Source: a virus
Lineage: Duplodnaviria; Caudoviricetes
Virus record (IMG/VR): IMGVR_UViG_3300031998_000040
Coordinates: 34,345-98,344 of that record
Reading direction: 5' to 3' (one strand)
DNA: 64,000 nucleotides
A model generated the notes under the pieces. The model was not told the origin of the DNA. It saw nothing but the letters and a program-made list of their open reading frames with translations, and ran no database searches. The stretch's first letter is position 1. Every line of letters starts with the position of its first letter. Position numbers and translations under genes: made by a program. This document shows positions 12,460-37,637 of this stretch, in pieces.

Positions 12460-12660
12460 AGAGCGGCGGTCGGCAAACCGCCGTAGCAGGTAGCGGTGTG
12501 CAAGTACCGCGGCTTTTCTTTCGGCTATTATACCCTTGCCGGGGTATTATAGTGGGTTGAAATACCCTTGCCGCTTCTTGCTTGCACAGGAGGCGGCATA
12601 AAATTTTCTTGCGAAACGGTCCGTTCTCCGGCTTCCTGCGGAGGACGGACTTTTTTGCAA
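12460..12660 (+). ncRNA. Structured leader / C4-like antisense attenuator
   Basis: Five hairpins; loops CGGCAA/TTGCCG and TGCAAG/CTTGCA are mutually complementary; last hairpin has a U6 tail. Confidence 0.55.
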
Positions 12661-12673
12661 GGAGGGTTCGGAA

Positions 12674-13003
12674 ATGAAAAAAGAAAAAAGCAGCAAACCC
12701 GGCGTGATGATCTACTTCGATATCCGCCGACAGGTCGAACGGTTGTCCCTCGAACAGCGCGGAGAACTATTCACCGCAATTTTGGACTTTGCTGAGAACG
12801 GAACGGAACCTACGCTGGATGAAATGACCGGAATGTGTTTCGACGGTCTCCGCCCCCGAATCGAAATGGACGGGAAGCGGTACGAAAACAAAGTTCAGAA
12901 ATCCAAATACGCCGTTTATGTTCGTGAGACGGAAAGGCACGGGGAAATTCCGCTCGACTACGCAGATTGGGAGCGGAGCCAAGAGCCTGAGTTCTGGCTG
13001 TAA
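12674..13003 (+). CDS. DUF6291-like protein (replication-initiator N-terminal type)
   Basis: LSLEQRGELFTAILDFAENG.EP...CFDGLRPRIEMDGKRYE. Confidence 0.75.
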   Translation: MKKEKSSKPGVMIYFDIRRQVERLSLEQRGELFTAILDFAENGTEPTLDEMTGMCFDGLRPRIEMDGKRYENKVQKSKYAVYVRETERHGEIPLDYADWERSQEPEFWL

Positions 13004-13040
13004 CATCGTCCGATATCGTTTGATATCGCCCGATATCTAA
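13001..13040 (+). repeat. 10-bp periodic GATATC repeats
   Basis: GATATC at 13012, 13022 and 13032, then an A-rich tract. Confidence 0.7.
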
Positions 13041-13150
13041 ATAAACGTAACTCAACTCAGCGTAAAGAAAAAATAAAAAGAAAACCAACCACAACGCCAG
13101 CACATCGCAGATGGATGCGTTGCATCGGCCGATACGAAAGGAGCCCCCAC

Positions 13151-14083
13151 ATGATTTACACACGCGCCGCCGCCGCGTTCCTCAACTACTGCCGAGCGTC
13201 CGGCATGACCGCCGCCACCGTGGAGAACCACGAGCGCAACCTCCGCCTGTTCTCCGAGACCGTCGCCCTGCCGGACGCCGACGCCGAGATCACCGTCGCC
13301 CACATCGACGAATACAAATCCCTGCTCCACCTCCGGGGCCTGAAGCAGTCCACCGTCCGCGCCTACCTCGAATCCCTCTGCCTGTTCTTCGCGTGGGCCA
13401 CCGAGCGGAAATACTGCGCGGAGAATCCCTGCACCCCCTCCGCCGTGAAGACCAAAGTTCCGCCCCCCGCGCCGTACAACCATCTGCTCACCCGTGAGGA
13501 AATGGCTGCGCTTCTCTCCCCCGTCTGCCCCAAGGGATGCACGAAGAAACTCTTCAACCGCAACCATGCCATCGTCACCGTGCTTCTCACTTCGGGCCTC
13601 AGAAATTCGGAACTCCGGGAGCTGCGTCTCTGCGACCTGATTCCCTCCGAGAACCGCCTCATCGTCCGCTGCGGCAAGGGCGGCAAGACCCGCTCCGCCC
13701 CCTACCCCCCGGCGGCGCAGGATGCCGTCGCCGCTTGGCTCGCCGACCCGCTCAGGCCGTCTTCGTTGCCCTCTGACGCGATTCTTTTCGGGAAAGGTAC
13801 GAACACCGCCTCGTGGCAGATGTTCAGCAGGACGGAGCTGAGCACGATGGTGGAGCGGTTTACCAAGACGGTGCTGGGAAAGGACTCCGGCGTCCGCACC
13901 CACGCCCTCCGCCACGCCAACGCCAGCTATCTGTGGGACAGCGGCATGAGGATGGAGGACATCCGCGATCTACTCGGTCACAGCGATGTGAAAGTCAGCC
14001 AGATGTATATTTCCCGCCTGCGTCCTCAGACCGCAACCGAATCCGCCACCAATGCGTTCGCGGCTCTGAGCCAAGCGGTATGA
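13151..14083 (+). CDS. Tyrosine recombinase/integrase (XerC/D-like)
   Basis: GLRNSEL, GKGGK, HALRH, LLGH and catalytic Y in SQMY. Confidence 0.93.
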   Translation: MIYTRAAAAFLNYCRASGMTAATVENHERNLRLFSETVALPDADAEITVAHIDEYKSLLHLRGLKQSTVRAYLESLCLFFAWATERKYCAENPCTPSAVKTKVPPPAPYNHLLTREEMAALLSPVCPKGCTKKLFNRNHAIVTVLLTSGLRNSELRELRLCDLIPSENRLIVRCGKGGKTRSAPYPPAAQDAVAAWLADPLRPSSLPSDAILFGKGTNTASWQMFSRTELSTMVERFTKTVLGKDSGVRTHALRHANASYLWDSGMRMEDIRDLLGHSDVKVSQMYISRLRPQTATESATNAFAALSQAV

Positions 14084-14090
14084 ATCAGGA

Positions 14091-14918
14091 GTGATTTCCG
14101 TGAAAGAAAAACTAGACCTCACCGGCAAACAGTTCGGTGATTGGACGGTTCTCTATGAAGAACCGCAGGAAGGGTATGTCAGGAAGTGGCGTTGCCGTTG
14201 TGTCTGCGGTGCCGAGAAAACCGTATATCAAGGTAATCTTACCCAAGGGAAAAGCCACGGATGCGGGTGCGCTGCTCGAAAGCTCACCGGTGAACGAGCA
14301 AGAACGCACGGGAAAAGAAACACCAGGTTATACAATATTTGGGTGCTTATGAGGCGCAGATGCTACGATGAATCCAGCGTATCTTACAAGAATTATGGAG
14401 GTCGCGGAATATCCGTTTGCGACGAATGGCTTGGCCATGACGGATTTCAGCACTTTTGGGATTGGTCCCATGAAAACGGATATAGCGAATCTGCGTCTCC
14501 GAGAGACTGCTCTATTGACAGGATTGATGTAAACGGTAATTACTGCCCTGAAAACTGTCGCTGGATTGATATGCGATCACAGTCCAGAAATAAACAAGGC
14601 ACTCATTGGGTAGAGTTTGGTGGCGAGACAATTTCACTTGCTGAATTTTGCGAGAGATACAACGTCGCTCCTGCTCTAGCAAGTGCAAGATTTCAGCGTG
14701 GGTGGTCCCCTGCCGAAGTCATGTTCTTCCATCCGAAATATCTTCCGAAATTGATTGAGTACAAGGGGGAAACCAGAACACAGCGAGGGTGGGCCAAGCA
14801 CTTTGGAATAGACCACAGAAAGCTCCAGTACCGCTTAAATCATGGGTGGACATTTGAGCAGGCGATAGGCATTGCTCCTCCGCCAAATAGGTACTCCAAT
14901 TCTCAAAAAGGAGATTAA
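14091..14918 (+). CDS. HNH-type homing-endonuclease-like protein
   Basis: LTGKQFG, CRCVCG, YGGRGI.VC.EW, SIDRIDVNGNYCPENCRW; lower GC than flanks. Confidence 0.85.
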   Translation: MISVKEKLDLTGKQFGDWTVLYEEPQEGYVRKWRCRCVCGAEKTVYQGNLTQGKSHGCGCAARKLTGERARTHGKRNTRLYNIWVLMRRRCYDESSVSYKNYGGRGISVCDEWLGHDGFQHFWDWSHENGYSESASPRDCSIDRIDVNGNYCPENCRWIDMRSQSRNKQGTHWVEFGGETISLAEFCERYNVAPALASARFQRGWSPAEVMFFHPKYLPKLIEYKGETRTQRGWAKHFGIDHRKLQYRLNHGWTFEQAIGIAPPPNRYSNSQKGD

Positions 14919-14923
14919 ACACC

Positions 14924-15007
14924 ATGCGCTACCTCGACCGTCTCCGCCCCACCGCCCCGACGGACCACGCCGCCGACGCTTTCGCCGCCCTCCGCGCCGC
15001 CGTCTGA
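14924..15007 (+). pseudogene. Displaced original C-terminus of the recombinase (27 codons, possibly translated)
   Basis: MRYLDRLRPTAPTDHAADAFAALRAAV*; 14/25 identical to recombinase end YISRLRPQTATESATNAFAALSQAV*. Confidence 0.85.
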
Positions 15008-15048
15008 CCGCAACCGTTTGGCTTTTCCGAACAGTTGCCACCAACGCC

Positions 15049-15092
15049 AAAGGGACTGGACGCCTCACCGCGCCCGGTCCCTTTTATTTTTT
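15049..15092. terminator. Terminator between converging transcription units
   Basis: AAAGGGACTGG...CCGGTCCCTTTTATTTTTT. Confidence 0.7.
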
Positions 15093-15121
15093 GCCCTTTA
15101 TATATAGCTTGCTACCAATCC

Positions 15122-16948
15122 TCAAGTCGCCGGAACGACCGTGTTGCTGGTGTAATAGGTCGTGTTGATCGTCGGCGTCCCAGTGAATGTCCCACCGGTT
15201 CCGGTGAACATATCCGTCGCTACTTCCGATCCATAGCCAGGGTTTATAATGGTTCCTGTCCCATTGATCGGGATTCGGTATTGTGTTGCATACTCTGCTG
15301 ATTGCGTTTCTGATAATTTTATCTTTATACATCCACGATACATTTCGTTATAGCACATGGAATACAGTTCCGTTGGCCTCAACGCGCTTAATGATGTTAA
15401 TGCTGTGCATCCATAATACATACCTTCACATGAATAGACGCCAAGCATCGTAGCCATGATTTTTGGCGGGGTCACAAGGCTGGTACACCCATAAAACATA
15501 TTGCAGCATCCCCAATAGTCTATTTGACTTGCTGTAATATCAGGCACGTCCACAAGGCTGGTGCATCCGTAATACATATGTGAACATGCTTCTTGCCCAA
15601 TTATACGTGTCGATAACTTTGCTGCTTTTCTGAGTGAAGTACATCCATCGAACATATGATAACAGGACTCAGGTGTAAGATCGCTTGTTATATCTGGTGC
15701 TTCCAAAAGTCCGGTCCCGGAGAACATATAGCTATACACACTGGTATTCCATATATTGCCGCTTCCACGATATGTCTTGGCTGCAAGCGGAGACGGTGCC
15801 GAAACAAGGGCAGAACACCCATGAAACATATAGGCAAAACAGCTATCGCGTGTTTCTGGATGCCCACCTGCTGCTACTGTTTCCCAGTCCAAAAGGGTTT
15901 CAATATTTCCATCTGCTTCAACAGAAGAACCCGTAATTACCCAGTGAAACTCAATGCTATTTACTCCCGTAATCACCGTATTCCCCGTACCGCGCATGAA
16001 AATCTCGTTGGTGTCCCCAGAGGAAATCGTAGTAGTTCCGTCCCACTCAGTCCACGTCATTCCGTCTGCGGAATAGTACAGCGCCCCGTTCCAGTCTTTA
16101 CATGCTCTGTATTTTCCAATCGTAAAGCTCTGCGGAGAATGGAACCGTACATAGTTCTTGTTCACTCCCAGTTCCTCCACCGTGCACTGCGCCGTCATGT
16201 TCCCCGGAACGCCGCCCCACGCCATCGCCGTCAGCACCCCGCCGTTGTTGTAGACGTGGACCGCACGGACGCCACGGCTCATAAGGTCCTCCATCTGCGT
16301 GGGCGTGAACTGAAGCTCCACATGGCTTTTCTCCGTCACGGTCGGTCCCGTGACGGTGATGATCTTCGTATAGGGGCTGGCTGCGCCGCTCCATGTCCCC
16401 GCCATGGCGACGGTCCCCCGCCGCAGCGAAGGATTCGCCTCGCTGTATTGCAGCACGTTCTCCACGTTTCCGAGACCGGCTTCTTCTGCCGTGACCTCGT
16501 GCGGATTGTTCCGCCGTGCAAAGTGCGCCGCCGCCGCGTCCGCGATCCGCGTCTCCGTCCAGTGGGTCGAATCCCAGGCTTCCGGCGTGTCGATGTCGGT
16601 GTTGGCTCGGTAAAGGATTCCGCCGTAGATGCAGAAGTCCCCCTCTGCGTAGGTCGAGGAGCTGTCATAGGTGTCTGCCAGGTTCTTCTCGATATCCCGC
16701 TCCGTCACCCAGATGTAGGCTTCCCCGTCCTGCGCCGTCATCTGCCAGATCGCCGGGGGACTGACGCTCGTATCGGCGTAGAGCTGACCCACGCCACCCG
16801 CCGTTGCGGTCGTCGGCGCTCCGCTTCCGCTGAGTATCTGGCTGTTTTCGATGGTGCCGCTCATGGCCCGCAGCTCCGTCGGACCGATGGCAGGCGGTAC
16901 GCCGTTTACCCAAACCGGCGCGGCGTAGTTCCCGTTATACATCGGCAT
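15122..16948 (-). CDS. Tail fibre/receptor-binding protein with BspA-like leucine-rich repeats
   Basis: NPHEVT..GLGNVEN fibre motif; repeated C..MFxGCTSL; lower-GC C-terminal half. Confidence 0.8.
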   Translation of the reverse strand: MPMYNGNYAAPVWVNGVPPAIGPTELRAMSGTIENSQILSGSGAPTTATAGGVGQLYADTSVSPPAIWQMTAQDGEAYIWVTERDIEKNLADTYDSSSTYAEGDFCIYGGILYRANTDIDTPEAWDSTHWTETRIADAAAAHFARRNNPHEVTAEEAGLGNVENVLQYSEANPSLRRGTVAMAGTWSGAASPYTKIITVTGPTVTEKSHVELQFTPTQMEDLMSRGVRAVHVYNNGGVLTAMAWGGVPGNMTAQCTVEELGVNKNYVRFHSPQSFTIGKYRACKDWNGALYYSADGMTWTEWDGTTTISSGDTNEIFMRGTGNTVITGVNSIEFHWVITGSSVEADGNIETLLDWETVAAGGHPETRDSCFAYMFHGCSALVSAPSPLAAKTYRGSGNIWNTSVYSYMFSGTGLLEAPDITSDLTPESCYHMFDGCTSLRKAAKLSTRIIGQEACSHMYYGCTSLVDVPDITASQIDYWGCCNMFYGCTSLVTPPKIMATMLGVYSCEGMYYGCTALTSLSALRPTELYSMCYNEMYRGCIKIKLSETQSAEYATQYRIPINGTGTIINPGYGSEVATDMFTGTGGTFTGTPTINTTYYTSNTVVPAT

Positions 16949-16978
16949 GTTCCGTCACGTTCCTTTCCGTCTTTCCCG

Positions 16979-17680
16979 TCATTTTCCGTCATCATCCCCG
17001 CGTATGAGCCGCACGATCATCTTGAAGAACCGATAGAGGATGACGCAGATTTCGGCGCGGGTCGCCCCCTGATTCGGCTTGAAGCTCCCGTCCGGGAATC
17101 CCTTGATAATCCCGTTTTCCTGCGCCCATCGGATTTCAGTTTCGGCGTAATGCCCGGTTACATCGTCTACTACAACAGGTTCTGGCTGATAGTTCGGACG
17201 GCATACCCCGACCACGTTCTTGACGCTACGCAGCTTCTTCGCCACACAGCCGCCGTTATATTCTTCTTGCGGAGTTCCCTCCACGCCGGGGGTCGTATTC
17301 CCCTCGATGGTGTACCAAGTCCCGGCCAGCTTGCCTTTCTCGACAACAAGGCCGCAATGCTCCGTGTCGAGTTCGCCGTTCACCTTTTTTCCAGAGAAGT
17401 TCAGGATCAGGATGTCGCCGACCTGAATCTCGGAGTTCGGAACGGTTTGGCCTTGTTCTCGGTAGCAGCGGAGAAGCGTCCGGCACGAAGCGGTCTTACC
17501 GCCGTTGTAGAACGCCATCCGTTCACCGGCCTTGTTAAACCAATAGGCGGGTGCCATAACACACCACGGCTGCCCGTTCACGCCATACCATTCACCGAAC
17601 TTTGTCTGATTACTGTTCGGTGGGAATTCTGTATAGCCGAGGTCTTCCAGCGCCGCGTCAATAACCGCTTGCTTGCTCAT
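16979..17680 (-). CDS. Endolysin, CHAP domain plus SLH domain
   Basis: GQPWC, EHCGLV, TIEGNT; SLH motif GIIKGFPDGSFKPNQGATRAE; AAGGAG 7 nt before ATG17680. Confidence 0.9.
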   Translation of the reverse strand: MSKQAVIDAALEDLGYTEFPPNSNQTKFGEWYGVNGQPWCVMAPAYWFNKAGERMAFYNGGKTASCRTLLRCYREQGQTVPNSEIQVGDILILNFSGKKVNGELDTEHCGLVVEKGKLAGTWYTIEGNTTPGVEGTPQEEYNGGCVAKKLRSVKNVVGVCRPNYQPEPVVVDDVTGHYAETEIRWAQENGIIKGFPDGSFKPNQGATRAEICVILYRFFKMIVRLIRGDDDGK

Positions 17681-18344
17681 ACTCATTCTCCTTATGCCAC
17701 TCATAACCACGGTAGGATTTCAGGTGTCCATTAGCGGCCTGTTGCACACACCAACGGTCATAACCGTGTTTATCAGCTTCCACAGCGGATGCGAAGCGAA
17801 TGATTTCTCCTGTCTGGTTATGAATTCCAATAACCGGGATTGAACGAACCCGTCTGAGTTTTTCAATACCTTCCTCTGACCAGTTCTTTTTCTTCCCTGT
17901 CAGACCAGCAGAAACCCTGAGATTGTGAGTGCCGTAGTTGCAGTTATACTTTGCCGTACACCATTCCAGATTTTCAACACAGTTATTGTGCTTGTTCTCG
18001 TCCTTGTGGTTTATGAACGGTAGCTCTTCTGGATTAGGTATGAACGCTTCAGCGACAAGGCGATGAATCTTCACGTCCTTCCGCACTCCGTTCACGCAAA
18101 AGTTGAGGCACAAATACCCTCGCCGTTCTATCGGCCTGAGGATATGCCAATCACGGTTACGAACACGACCCATGTTGCTGACTTCGTATCTGGTTTCGTA
18201 ACCTTTGGCTGGTCTCCACTCCTCCTGCTCCCCTTGCAGTTCAGGCCACCATTCCGACCAGTATTCGACCCGATTCGACTCAGCCGGGTCTTCGTGTACG
18301 CCCAGCTCTCCCCGGGCGATTTCGATTACTTTTGATAGGCTCAT
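17658..18344 (-). CDS. NUMOD4-HNH endonuclease fused to an endolysin-like N-terminus
   Basis: EEWRPAKGYE..YEVSNMGRVR; IHRLVAEAFIPN; INHKDENKHNNCVENLEW; first ~40 aa resemble the lysin N-terminus. Confidence 0.9.
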   Translation of the reverse strand: MSLSKVIEIARGELGVHEDPAESNRVEYWSEWWPELQGEQEEWRPAKGYETRYEVSNMGRVRNRDWHILRPIERRGYLCLNFCVNGVRKDVKIHRLVAEAFIPNPEELPFINHKDENKHNNCVENLEWCTAKYNCNYGTHNLRVSAGLTGKKKNWSEEGIEKLRRVRSIPVIGIHNQTGEIIRFASAVEADKHGYDRWCVQQAANGHLKSYRGYEWHKENEYEQASGY

Positions 18345-18355
18345 GCTGTCCTCCT

Positions 18356-18745
18356 TTACGGCGGCGTTGTCGTGACCGTCGGGGCGTTCCCCTCAAACAT
18401 GATAACGCCGATGTGCATATTGCCGCTGGCATTTACTAACCGGATGACATTGTTCCCCTGCGGCGTTACGGTCGTACCCGATTGCGAGATCGCCAAAAGC
18501 GTGACCATTTGCAAATCCGAGGTGGACCCGCTGTTAAAAATGTAAAACCCGCTCTTTGCAACGGCGACAGTACCGACGCCGGTAAACGATATCAGCCCCG
18601 TTTTGATGCCTGTCGGAAATACCAGGTAGTATGTGGCATTCGCAGACAGGTTAAACATGGCGGATGCGGATATCCCGCCGATGCCAAGCAGCCCCTTTTC
18701 CTCCGGTACGCCTGGCAGCGGTCGTTCTCCCGTCCCGCTCGCCAT
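18356..18745 (-). CDS. Tail-fibre-associated hypothetical protein
   Basis: Coupled to neighbours; GGAGG RBS; beta-rich. Confidence 0.65.
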   Translation of the reverse strand: MASGTGERPLPGVPEEKGLLGIGGISASAMFNLSANATYYLVFPTGIKTGLISFTGVGTVAVAKSGFYIFNSGSTSDLQMVTLLAISQSGTTVTPQGNNVIRLVNASGNMHIGVIMFEGNAPTVTTTPP

Positions 18746-19003
18746 TTATTCTTCCTCCGTCTCAGCCGCAGAGGCCGCAGAGTGCTTATAGCATTGATGG
18801 TAGATGGGAAATCCCTCCGCTGTCATCAGGATCGCAGCATGGGACGGCAGCTCGCTCACAGCAGCCGCCGCAAGAACCTCATGATACTTGCTTTCTCCCT
18901 TGAGACGTGCCTTTTCGGGGTTTTCGTCATAGGCAAAATGGACAATATGCCCGTATTCTCCGTTATCGTATTGCTGGATCTCCACGATGTAATACTGTTT
19001 CAT
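18746..19003 (-). CDS. Small tail-associated protein (possible fibre chaperone)
   Basis: Directly follows fibre gene; YYIVEIQ...ESKYHEVLAAAA. Confidence 0.65.
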   Translation of the reverse strand: MKQYYIVEIQQYDNGEYGHIVHFAYDENPEKARLKGESKYHEVLAAAAVSELPSHAAILMTAEGFPIYHQCYKHSAASAAETEEE

Positions 19004-19004
19004 A

Positions 19005-20345
19005 TCAATTCCCCTTTCTGACAAGCAAAATGTTTGCCGTTGTCGCTGCCGTCGCGGTGCCGCTCAGGGTAAAGCTCCCTGCCCCCGTTGTCCAAGTAAA
19101 CCCCGCTGTGATATAGCTCGGATCAGCCCACTCTATCCGGGCAAGCACATAGCCTGCGGTGATTTTTGCGTCGGAAATGCTCAATATCTGCTGACTTGTC
19201 CCAGCAGAAACCGCAACGGAGGAAAACCAAAGTCTCCCGTCCGCGATGTTGTTTCCCGCCCCATCCCGGTCCGCTACTACGCCGTCTGCGCTGGTTGCGG
19301 TTGTTGGCTCTGAAACTTGAAGCGCCGTGAAATATGACGATATATTCTTGTAGGCACTACGGTCTGATGACAGTAGATTATAGAACAAGACATATGATGG
19401 TGCGAGTTTGTGGATATAAAGTGTTACCGTCTCCGTTGTCTGGTCTACGGTATATCGGATATCGTTCACAGAATATCCGTTTTTTGCCCACCAGCGAACA
19501 GTCGCACTGATGCTCCCTCCGTTTTCGTGATGGAATCGACAGTTCAGTAGCCCCTGGTATGCATTCTTACCATCCGTGAAAAATAGCAGAAATTTCGTAG
19601 TTTCATTATTTGGAAGCGTGAACTGCATAAACTGAAACCAAACTCCGTCAGACCCGCTAAGGCGATAGATATACCGCAGATTGCTTGCACCAACCGCAGT
19701 CCCGCCGGAAGCCAGCGCCCCCACATCCGCAGCCGTCAGGTCGAAATCTCCCGTCAGGGGATGCCCGTTGATCTCCAGTGCAGCCGCCGCCCTGGTCGTG
19801 TCCGTTGGATGGACGTGTCCGCCGTCTGCCCAGTTCCCCGTACTGCCGGGGCTGGCCGTGCCGTCCATCTGCGGGTTGGAAGAATAAGCAGGAGGAACGG
19901 TAGGGATGACTCCGTTTGCGAGATCGCTTGCCGGGATGCCGCCGGACGGCTTCTGATATGCCGTGTCCGCTTTATTCAGCGATGTCTGCACCGCAGAGGT
20001 CATATCCGTAGACGGAATACCCCCGCTGGGCTTGCTGTATGTGCCGTAATCCGTTCCGGGCGTTGCGGCAGATATGCCGCCAGCACCGTCACCCTTGAGG
20101 ATGCCATTAACAAGGATTTCGCTCTGCGCCCCCACGTCCGACGCATCCAAAACGATATCGTCATCCAGAGCTTCGCCGTTGATCGTCCGGCTGCTTGGCA
20201 CAAAGAATCCCGCGAACTGCTGACGAAGCCACGCCAGCACCGTTGCAAAGGTGAACCGGCTGTTTTCTCCGCTGTGCAGTCCGACAATGGCGTCCGACGC
20301 TTCGACGTTGTTCGCCTGCGGGAACTGGCTGTATTTCGTAGCCAT
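19005..20345 (-). CDS. Tail fibre protein
   Basis: RTING..L..DIVLDASDVGA, KPSGGIP repeats, DGGHVHPTDT. Confidence 0.8.
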   Translation of the reverse strand: MATKYSQFPQANNVEASDAIVGLHSGENSRFTFATVLAWLRQQFAGFFVPSSRTINGEALDDDIVLDASDVGAQSEILVNGILKGDGAGGISAATPGTDYGTYSKPSGGIPSTDMTSAVQTSLNKADTAYQKPSGGIPASDLANGVIPTVPPAYSSNPQMDGTASPGSTGNWADGGHVHPTDTTRAAAALEINGHPLTGDFDLTAADVGALASGGTAVGASNLRYIYRLSGSDGVWFQFMQFTLPNNETTKFLLFFTDGKNAYQGLLNCRFHHENGGSISATVRWWAKNGYSVNDIRYTVDQTTETVTLYIHKLAPSYVLFYNLLSSDRSAYKNISSYFTALQVSEPTTATSADGVVADRDGAGNNIADGRLWFSSVAVSAGTSQQILSISDAKITAGYVLARIEWADPSYITAGFTWTTGAGSFTLSGTATAATTANILLVRKGN

Positions 20346-36521: not shown

Positions 36522-36550
36522 TTGCTATAAACATCCTGTTGTGGTATAAT
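36522..36550 (+). promoter_or_regulatory. Sigma-A type promoter for antisense-oriented HNH gene
   Basis: TTGCTA-17 bp-TATAAT with extended TG. Confidence 0.75.
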
Positions 36551-36556
36551 GCTATT

Positions 36557-36660
36557 GGAAGGTTGCGGCTTCCTTATATGTGGTACATCGCGGGGCTTGT
36601 CCCCGCTTTGTTCAGTACGCCGATGGAGCGCCGCAACCGCTCGGTCGGCGTATTTTTATC
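36557..36660 (+). ncRNA. Structured leader with kissing-loop terminator
   Basis: Hairpin loop GTTGCGG (36562-68) is complementary to terminator loop CCGCAAC (36631-37). Confidence 0.55.
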
Positions 36661-36671
36661 GGAGGTGTGCT

Positions 36672-37637
36672 ATGAGAACCGAAGATTTGACGGGTAGAGA
36701 ATACGGTTACTTTACCGTCCTTGGATTTGACCGCTCCGTTGGGGGAAAGCGGTATTGGAACTGCCGTTGCATTTGCGGGAATACCCGAAGTGTAATGACT
36801 TCGTGCTTGATAAACGGCAGGATAAAGTCGTGCGGTTGTATGAATAAAACCAATCGAATTGATCTTACCGGGCAGCGATTCGGCAGGCTTATCGTTACCG
36901 GACTTCATGAAGACCCGAACGACGATAAGTTGAAATGGGATTGCGTCTGCGACTGCGGTAATCGAAAGGTCGTATATGGTGCGCATCTTCGTTACGGTAA
37001 AGTCAAAAGCTGTGGATGCCTAAAAGCCGAGAATGATGCTCCACATCCAGATTCCTTCTACAATCAACGCCTATACGGAGTATGGTGCGGTATGTTGCAG
37101 CGATGCTCTGATAAAGGGCATTCTTCTTTCCACAATTACGGTGGTCGCGGGATTGCCGTTTGCGACGAATGGAGGAACTACGAAGTATTCCGGTCTTGGG
37201 CTTACGCAAACGGTTACGACGAAAACCACGATTCAACGTCATGCACGCTTGACCGCATTGATGTGAATAGTGACTACTGCCCTGAGAATTGCCGCTGGGT
37301 TGACAGGAAAACTCAGAGCCGCAATACGAGGCGCAATTTCCTTGTTGAATACAAAGGAGAATTGTTGTCCGCCACAGATGTTGCCGAAAGGGAGGGAATC
37401 AAAGCCAACACATTACTTAAGCGATTAAAAAGTGGATATTCATTGGAAGAAGCATTGTGTCACGAGAGGGTAGGTCTTCCAACAACTCGCCCTGTAATAT
37501 GTGTAGAACTTAACCGAAGGTTTGATTCAATACTCGATGCTTCCGGGTTCATCAACGTAAAGCCAAGTGCTATCAGCAGGGCATTGCGTGATGGTGGGAG
37601 AAGCGGAGGCTATCATTGGCGCTATGCCATTAACTAA
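36672..37637 (+). CDS. HNH-type homing-endonuclease-like protein (same family as 14091-14918)
   Basis: Two DLTG..(Y/F)G/C.C.CG units; LDRIDVNSDYCPENCRW; NUMOD1-like end; GGAGGT RBS. Confidence 0.85.
   Translation: MRTEDLTGREYGYFTVLGFDRSVGGKRYWNCRCICGNTRSVMTSCLINGRIKSCGCMNKTNRIDLTGQRFGRLIVTGLHEDPNDDKLKWDCVCDCGNRKVVYGAHLRYGKVKSCGCLKAENDAPHPDSFYNQRLYGVWCGMLQRCSDKGHSSFHNYGGRGIAVCDEWRNYEVFRSWAYANGYDENHDSTSCTLDRIDVNSDYCPENCRWVDRKTQSRNTRRNFLVEYKGELLSATDVAEREGIKANTLLKRLKSGYSLEEALCHERVGLPTTRPVICVELNRRFDSILDASGFINVKPSAISRALRDGGRSGGYHWRYAIN

Follow-up and report, generated by a model that had tools for sequence, protein, structure and literature searches.

When the prophages e14 and phage 21 enter icd, the 3' end of the gene undergoes an integrase-borne replacement, in which a foreign cassette comes to have a copy of the target segment on either side and the gene remains whole thanks to the copy that the element brings or creates. 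The same can be said of restriction-modification genes inserted with a long target duplication, where the flanking repeats are near-identical (PMC2853133). In fungal mitochondria the mobile endonuclease open reading frames (mORFs) found in Allomyces atp6 and in Glomus atp6, atp9, cox2 and nad3 combine a LAGLIDADG or GIY-YIG open reading frame (ORF) with an inserted C-terminus, and together these displace the native C-terminus (PMC3630166). The present analysis concerns a related arrangement in a virus of the Caudoviricetes (IMG/VR record IMGVR_UViG_3300031998_000040; 98,344 bp, ~58% GC, rated complete by CheckV). Within a stretch of 64,000 nucleotides (nt) of this record, its bases 34345-98344 and here called the window, two HNH-type genes, HNH1 and HNH2, adjoin an integrase gene and an endolysin gene, respectively, and each lies between two diverged copies of one terminus of the gene that it adjoins.

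Among phages, the free-standing endonucleases of the T4-like group (Seg, Mob and the process of intronless homing) are intron-less, variably present between conserved genes and thought to spread by break repair with co-conversion of the flanks, and their HNH members nick DNA (PMC2988022, PMC2790892). Such genes sit between other genes or split a gene into two polypeptides, as with nrdA in Aeh1, genes 39/60 and gene 43, and a review of the T4 elements leaves duplicated or replaced gene termini unmentioned (PMC2988022). The mobA and gene 60 ribosomal-bypass cassette of T4 (bioRxiv 10.1101/2022.08.31.505936) also couples a homing endonuclease with a second device that keeps the invaded gene functional and alters the target site without splicing, but the device is a 50-nt translational bypass element and not a replacement gene end. 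I-HmuI (PDB 1u3e), a nicking HNH endonuclease from the Bacillus phage SPO1, is encoded in a group I intron of a DNA polymerase gene; HNH2 aligns to its whole length, yet is intron-less and fused to a lysin leader. A search of the phage literature, of incomplete coverage, found free-standing endonucleases between genes, split genes and the mobA/bypass cassette (PMC2988022, PMC10448857, PMC12724721, bioRxiv 10.1101/2022.08.31.505936), and no description of a gene terminus being duplicated or replaced by a homing endonuclease.

How do the two loci of the window compare with these systems? As in the mORFs, an endonuclease ORF near the 3' end of the integrase gene is accompanied by an in-frame foreign C-terminus, a downstream native C-terminus is closer to relatives, and there is no splicing; a foreign in-frame terminus together with a left-behind native terminus closer to relatives is found at the lysin as well. 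The mORFs are LAGLIDADG or GIY-YIG elements of organelles for which only the C-terminal form has been described, whereas here the genes are HNH-type, the setting is a 98-kb phage genome and an N-terminal form is present in addition. The elements work like mORFs and are not members of that group by descent. They also differ from prophages of the icd type, which use a site-specific recombinase and att sites, in that the inserts encode the nuclease only, the integrase being target and not cargo, and from the restriction-modification insertions in that the duplicated copies are only ~56-65% identical in DNA. The interpretation favoured here, with a probability of about 0.75, is that these are two unrelated free-standing HNH homing-endonuclease cassettes, each carrying a replacement terminus, and the phage counterpart of the fungal mitochondrial mORFs. 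It draws on direct observation of the anatomy of the loci, of empty alleles, of recurrence at one site in many backgrounds, of mosaic identity blocks and of a loss recombinant; the comparative evidence supports it strongly at the integrase and moderately at the lysin. The features of the integrase locus are as follows.

13151..14083, + strand: tyrosine recombinase (integrase), 310 residues, complete (Pfam Phage_integrase 1.9e-18; XerC/XerD-like NCBIfam matches extending to the Tyr)
13940..14083, + strand: replacement (attached) integrase C-terminus, read as a foreign tract arriving with HNH1; left edge approximate, from a drop in GC content at third codon positions (GC3) and shifts in identity
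14100..14918, + strand: HNH1, free-standing HNH-type (perhaps PacI-like) endonuclease gene, 272 residues (phrog_374 HNH endonuclease 2.1e-64)
14919..15007, + strand: orphan native integrase C-terminus, a 27-codon ORF from ATG 14924, probably displaced by the cassette
15051..15095, no strand: GC-rich hairpin and T-run between the converging integrase and tail-fibre genes, marking the end of the shared right flank (read from the sequence)

The integrase is judged to be full length because 56 close homologues (68-95% identity) measure 307-310 residues; its start is that used by the homologues and its catalytic Tyr codon lies at 14006-14008. HNH1 has a GTG start 17 bases past the integrase stop, with AGGAG 9 nt upstream, and the insert on this side amounts to 0.97 kb and encodes the nuclease alone. 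Five bases past the HNH1 stop, the ORF at 14924-15007 repeats the integrase end from two codons before the Tyr to the stop, with the orphan C-terminus beginning 2-3 codons ahead of the Tyr codon, and AAGGAG stands in the last HNH1 codons (14908-14913), 10 nt upstream of ATG 14924. The attached and orphan ends are identical at 47/84 nt, and their Smith-Waterman score is 67, where 5000 shuffles gave 23.9 +/- 3.8 and never more than 44.

Which of the two ends is native to the gene? The integrase body (GC3 0.85) and the orphan (0.89-0.93) contrast with the attached end (~0.6) and HNH1 (0.48), and the drop from ~0.95 to ~0.6 begins near 13945-13965; overall GC is 0.48 in HNH1 versus 0.64 in the integrase. 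Comparison with relatives (L-numbers denote loci, and P-numbers homologue proteins or clusters used for comparison) gives a similar division. From 13931 onward the identity of the window to L024, which is free of HNH genes, falls from 86-98% to 58-66%, and its identity to the cassette-bearing L033 and L120 rises from 80-90% to 96-100%. L024 is 90% identical to the window over the gene body, and its last 84 nt match the window orphan at 79/84 positions and the attached copy at 50/84. The presence of HNH1 is polymorphic at this one site, with L023, L024, L029 and L030 lacking the gene and eight lineages having it, and most integrases of the family are without it.

The hairpin at 15051..15095 is the same element that follows the integrase region in L023, L024 and L033, and is absent from the listing of a simple terminator scan. 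The space between the integrase, or the orphan, and the hairpin holds varied cargo in relatives, namely a 155-residue ORF (L024 4447-4914), a NADAR-domain gene together with this 155-residue ORF (L120 2724-3694) or ~300 bp of non-coding DNA (L023 4434-4748), and appears to be a hot spot for small insertions.

The lysin locus is arranged as a mirror image.

16979..17686, - strand: endolysin (CHAP-like amidase/peptidase plus SLH), complete (phrog_21357 endolysin 4.6e-28; Pfam SLH 5e-12)
17564..17686, - strand: replacement lysin N-terminus carried behind HNH2; its first 10 codons are distinctive to HNH2-bearing loci
17688..17693, - strand: AAGGAG ribosome-binding site for the lysin, within the last HNH2 codons (read from the sequence; identical in L028)
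17658..18230, - strand: HNH2 proper, an I-HmuI-like NUMOD4 plus HNH_3 homing endonuclease with no start codon of its own (Pfam NUMOD4 4.4e-10, HNH_3 3.5e-7)
18231..18344, - strand: native lysin N-terminus left as an orphan of 38 codons that reads in frame into HNH2

The CHAP match of the endolysin (8.9e-4) lies below the Pfam gathering cut-off; its likely start is ATG 17680 (or 17686) and its Cys codon is at 17561-17563. The lysin orphan provides HNH2 with a start codon and an AAGGAGG ribosome-binding site, the full ORF running from 18344 to 17658, and since there is no in-frame start codon near the head of the nuclease part, translation must begin at this lysin-type start. At the other end of the nuclease the first ~9 codons of the replacement N-terminus overlap the 3' end of the HNH2 ORF, with the AAGGAG at 17693-17688 placed 7 nt upstream of ATG 17680 and followed by two ATGs (17686 and 17680). 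The two lysin N-termini are ~65% identical in DNA and align with a score of 56 (shuffles 25.5 +/- 4.3, maximum 47). In the intact lysin P0099 the part that matches the orphan, at 79% identity, leads directly into the four codons Gln-Pro-Trp-Cys, which places the junction three codons before the presumed nucleophile. Those HNH-free lysins that are closest in body (70-75% identity) all begin orphan-style, and the first 10 codons of the attached copy occur, among ~90 lysins compared, only in the two HNH2-bearing loci, the window and L028. The latter, a 1171-bp contig from a different phage, is the one second instance of HNH2: its nuclease (84% amino acid identity) likewise continues in frame from an orphan lysin N-terminus, which here has 25 codons, and the internal ribosome-binding site and replacement N-terminus are as in the window, while the upstream gene is unrelated to that of the window. 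That the fusion is in frame at both loci suggests that the nuclease needs to be translated from the lysin start.

These results bear on an earlier sequence-only reading of the same DNA, which had proposed that two HNH genes are each flanked by diverged copies of a host-gene terminus, with junctions within a few codons of the catalytic residue. Both proposals hold, in that the two duplications score far above shuffled controls and the junctions lie 2-3 codons from the Tyr or the Cys. Its further claim, that an AAGGAG in the last nuclease codons serves the downstream ORF, stands for both window genes and for HNH2 in L028, where the motif is kept; ahead of the orphan integrase C-terminus the motif is confined to the closest clade (the window, L033 and L120) and is missing from the five other lineages. 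It had also noted no hallmarks of introns or inteins, and this is borne out. An alternative is that the nuclease genes are carried by self-splicing group I or group II introns, or by inteins, and introns often do harbour the HNH genes of phage lysin and polymerase genes. A scan of 12500-19500 against Rfam at E<=1, however, gave no intron family and one chance microRNA match. Neither a ribozyme core nor splicing domains with junction nucleophiles were found, and the junctions contain stop codons and changes of frame. The host ORFs on both sides are complete with stop or start signals of their own: the integrase runs its full length to a stop codon ahead of HNH1, the lysin is likewise full length and opens with its own ribosome-binding site and start, and HNH2, which is read in a different frame from the lysin, terminates at a stop codon. 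Splicing would, moreover, make the duplicated ends needless, and an explanation along these lines is considered highly improbable.

The HNH1 cassette recurs. The family is found in eight lineages, which span more than 40 metagenomic contigs and without exception follow integrases of one family. Homologues at 58-79% identity comprise P0185, P0187, P0190, P0191, P0313, P0318 and P0320, the last of these on at least 24 contigs, and all seven of the seven looked up (L032, L033, L034, L035, L116-L119, L120 and L121) are directly behind an integrase of that family. Just past the nuclease stop at every HNH1 locus looked up is an orphan integrase C-terminus, open to its natural stop. It begins ~8 nt before the Tyr codon in the window, L033, L034 and L035, 0-3 nt before it in L120 and 3-6 nt after it in L032, L116 and L121, such that the junctions of all eight lineages lie within 17 nt around one codon. 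Which attached allele is paired with which orphan varies by lineage, and the orphan of L035 is of a type that is attached elsewhere. The idea that 'Arg-Tyr' alleles are sensitive and 'Ile/Met-Tyr' alleles resistant fails, as the attached copy of L116 has Arg-Tyr.

When the loci are compared segment by segment, the percent DNA identity (with the HNH 5' segment taken as 200 nt) is distributed as follows.

Window/L033/L120: integrase body 83-90, attached end 99, HNH 5' 89-96, HNH middle 68-78, HNH 3' end 70-92, orphan 89-97
L034/L035: integrase body 92, attached end 66, HNH 5' 64, HNH middle 66, HNH 3' end 90, orphan 61
L116/L121: integrase body 94, attached end 72, HNH 5' 65, HNH middle 67, HNH 3' end 86, orphan 71

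Phages with integrase bodies that agree at only 83-90% of positions have attached ends that are 99-100% identical, and the blocks imply joint inheritance of the attached end with the 5' part of the nuclease gene, unlinked to that of the gene body. L034 and L035 have a nearly identical HNH 3' end followed by orphans that are unrelated from the first base past the stop, the right breakpoint thereby being the exact end of the nuclease ORF. Mosaic blocks of this kind characterise a unit that passes from genome to genome at a fixed site, and not a single old scar. The opposite view is that the duplications are passive, with one ancient illegitimate recombination in each gene that brought in a nuclease gene and a foreign end, followed by vertical inheritance and phage mosaicism, the nucleases playing no part in the spread. 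Phage genomes are indeed mosaic, with nuclease genes often at exchange boundaries (PMC10448857), and such a history would also suit the even divergence of the two HNH2 loci, the lack of a canonical His in HNH1 and the existence of replacement-type ends without any HNH gene. It sits badly with the confinement of eight lineages' junctions to 17 nt around one codon, with orphans that differ right after identical HNH 3' ends, with attached ends that are so much more alike than the integrase bodies, and with the fact that 8/8 orphans are still intact open frames resembling the functional alleles of relatives; passive scarring is on this account regarded as unlikely.

The loss recombinant is L023, which has no nuclease gene and an integrase 95% identical to that of the window. 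It equals the attached copy of the window as far as 14047 and the orphan of the window from 14972 onward, and of its last 33 bases 32 match the orphan and 22 the attached copy. Its sequence is exactly what a 924-bp in-frame deletion from one copy to the other, at a CCGCC microhomology, would give, but it could equally have arisen by a repair that copied part of the attached end of a donor and then annealed to the recipient's own end. Either route leaves a replacement-type allele without the nuclease.

A further neighbour of such alleles may be recorded here. In L029 (962-1570) and in the ENA/Logan contigs of P0012, which have a replacement-type end and no HNH1, a different HNH gene (PF01844, 202 residues) lies directly ahead of the integrase, whose start it overlaps by 4 nt.

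Are HNH1 and HNH2 nucleases at all? Both are HNH-type by PHROGs, while Pfam recognises HNH2 only. In HNH2 the NUMOD4 and HNH_3 matches are both above cut-off with the His-Asn-Asn motif aligned, and from residue 42 the ORF aligns to the whole of I-HmuI (from residue 2 of PDB 1u3e, 8.1e-15), so that an HNH/beta-beta-alpha-metal nuclease domain with its catalytic residues is present. HNH1 has no match in Pfam and no sequence match in the PDB. Its AlphaFold model has a mean confidence score (pLDDT) of 89.5, and the best fold match of the model is the HNH restriction enzyme PacI, a weak one (Z 6.3 over 84 residues, model residues 64-168), with a Foldseek search of the model against the PDB giving nothing below E 0.1. 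In a profile comparison of HNH1 with HNH2 the motif region is aligned (E 0.11), and the HNH1 family has an invariant His 70 residues upstream of the motif. Nuclease activity is plausible for HNH1.

The sequence-only reading had expected an empty integrase allele to consist of the gene body and an orphan-type end, as L024 does, and an empty lysin allele of an orphan-type start and the body, as is found in P0099 and in the closest HNH-free lysins, and this outcome supports the homing-cassette interpretation. Several observations weigh against it. HNH-free relatives that carry the replacement terminus, a finding that the reading had set against itself, exist in L023, P0012 and P0029 and weaken a simple one-way story. 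Replacement-type ends without HNH in P0012 and P0029 mean that the attached allele is also a natural one and that the exchange could partly be ordinary recombination. P0012 and P0029 can be read as products of nuclease loss like L023, or as source alleles, and replacement-type HNH-free relatives are regarded here as expected stages of the homing cycle after the nuclease has been lost. The orphan junctions shift by a few codons among lineages, which requires several founding events or later small deletions. The HNH2 loci of the window and L028 are ~83% identical in DNA throughout, and on account of this evenness they may descend from one old insertion, vertically inherited. Finally, the 43 HNH1-family members have an invariant Arg where the catalytic His of HNH2 aligns, and this, with a PacI match of only Z 6.3, means that HNH1 could be inactive or mobilised in trans.

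The invariant Arg in place of the catalytic His raises another prospect, that of domestication, in which HNH1 would be a catalytically dead DNA-binding partner of the integrase, for instance a directionality or regulatory factor, and the orphan peptide or the lysin-leader fusion would be functional. The constant position beside the integrase is in keeping with such a role, as are the AAGGAG and ATG ahead of the orphan in the window, L033 and L120. Set against this, most integrases of the family do without HNH1, the orphan start signals are missing in 5/8 lineages, and HNH1 resembles selfish nuclease genes in having hypervariable, mosaic middle and 3' parts. Domestication also leaves the duplicated ends unexplained, and is thought rather improbable.

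According to the homing-cassette interpretation, each cassette would consist of a nuclease gene and a diverged copy of the short segment that runs from the insertion point to the nearest terminus of the host gene. For the integrase this would be the new C-terminus with its stop followed by HNH1, and for the lysin HNH2 followed by a ribosome-binding site and the new N-terminus. As the cassette brings a spare terminus, the host gene stays complete without RNA or protein splicing, and the native end is left as an orphan. In a co-infection the nuclease would nick or cut a naive allele at the catalytic-codon site; the break would be repaired from a cassette-bearing genome, with the gene body and the orphan end acting as the two homology arms; and the replacement end and nuclease gene (in mirror image for the lysin) would be copied in, with the recipient's own end becoming the new orphan. 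With a carried terminus that differs at the target, the repaired allele would be safe from a second cut. As for the N-terminal form, its nuclease would be translated from the original start of the lysin through the orphan codons. In this scheme we infer that the enzymes are active nucleases, where they cut and that repaired alleles resist them; the scheme would account for the native-looking intact orphans, the junctions at one codon, the travelling of the attached end with the nuclease and the diversity of alleles in the Tyr region.

Such a mechanism would show that homing endonucleases of phages are able to invade a gene at its most conserved part, the catalytic one, without an intron or an intein, by carrying the short piece that is cut off. 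It would explain the patchwork of alleles around the catalytic tyrosine in an integrase family that is otherwise 70-95% identical, and it ties phage biology to the mitochondrial mORF phenomenon. It also offers natural pairs of nuclease and putatively immune target for the study of specificity evolution, and gives annotators a signature to search for, namely a nuclease ORF between diverged copies of its neighbour's terminus. A bolder possibility, which is put forward tentatively and at somewhat less than even odds, is that terminus replacement is a general third route by which homing endonucleases of phages and bacteria enter coding sequence, beside splicing and gene splitting. The specificity region of the nuclease and the linked 'immune' terminus would then co-evolve and drive the allele diversity of the integrases, the orphan would serve as the next homology arm and the N-terminal form would be a new architecture. 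The route would have gone unnoticed because orphan ends are too short to be annotated. The most original part is the N-terminal form, where the nuclease takes the start of the host gene and the host gene restarts inside the nuclease ORF.

How specific is the duplication pattern? Of the six HNH-type genes in this phage genome it concerns HNH1 and HNH2; the other four show no flanking duplication (scores 37-51). When translated flanks were compared across 105 HNH loci, only the integrase and lysin cases were credible above the null maximum of 56, and ~95 loci from outside this genome were free of duplicated flanks. L080 (score 62) and L019 (score 53) were not counted, their alignments crossing stop codons or low-complexity sequence. 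At ~1580-3000 of L080 a relative of HNH2 (37% identity) lies beside cytosine-methyltransferase-like sequence with a short motif repeated on both sides, and this may be a decayed example of the same kind.

The relatives of the phage are from rumen and gut metagenomes, with one integrase homologue labelled Clostridia. A blastn search of a GenBank phage collection gave no relatives, the matches being limited to short HNH motifs. Scans of IMG/VR found no match with the integrase, no match to the exact junction pattern and, with HNH1 and HNH2, relatives at only 36-52% identity in other contexts; a metagenome scan with an HNH2 alignment returned 80 loci, all at <=57% identity.

Some other genes deserve mention. 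A second member of the HNH1 family (phrog_374) is encoded at 36531-37637 on the + strand, in the structural region, as a 368-residue ORF with tandem zinc-ribbon repeats; this gene (G000:C1 70875-71981) has no flanking duplication and could supply nuclease activity in trans. Outside the window, a NUMOD4-HNH gene on the - strand (G000:C1 21256-22023) has a 45-residue Cys-rich N-terminal extension before NUMOD4 that recalls the leader of HNH2, with no duplicated partner downstream (score 51, inside the null range). In an IMG/VR phage (L017 2139-5686) a family-B-like DNA polymerase is encoded in two ORFs of 291 and 710 residues with an overlapping NUMOD4-HNH ORF between them, the gene being split either by a free-standing endonuclease or by an unrecognised intron.

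Between the two cassettes, the C-terminal third of the tail-fibre gene (608 residues, - strand), at 15122-16100, has a GC content of 0.42-0.48 compared with ~0.6 in the N-terminal part. The N-terminus matches the fibre genes of L001, L023 and L024 and the C-terminal part does not, and the latter looks like a swapped receptor-binding module. In L023, L024, L025 and L027 a reverse transcriptase gene (Pfam RVT_1) lies on the - strand ~3 kb downstream of the integrase, beside tail-fibre-like genes, which suggests a diversity-generating retroelement in this phage group.

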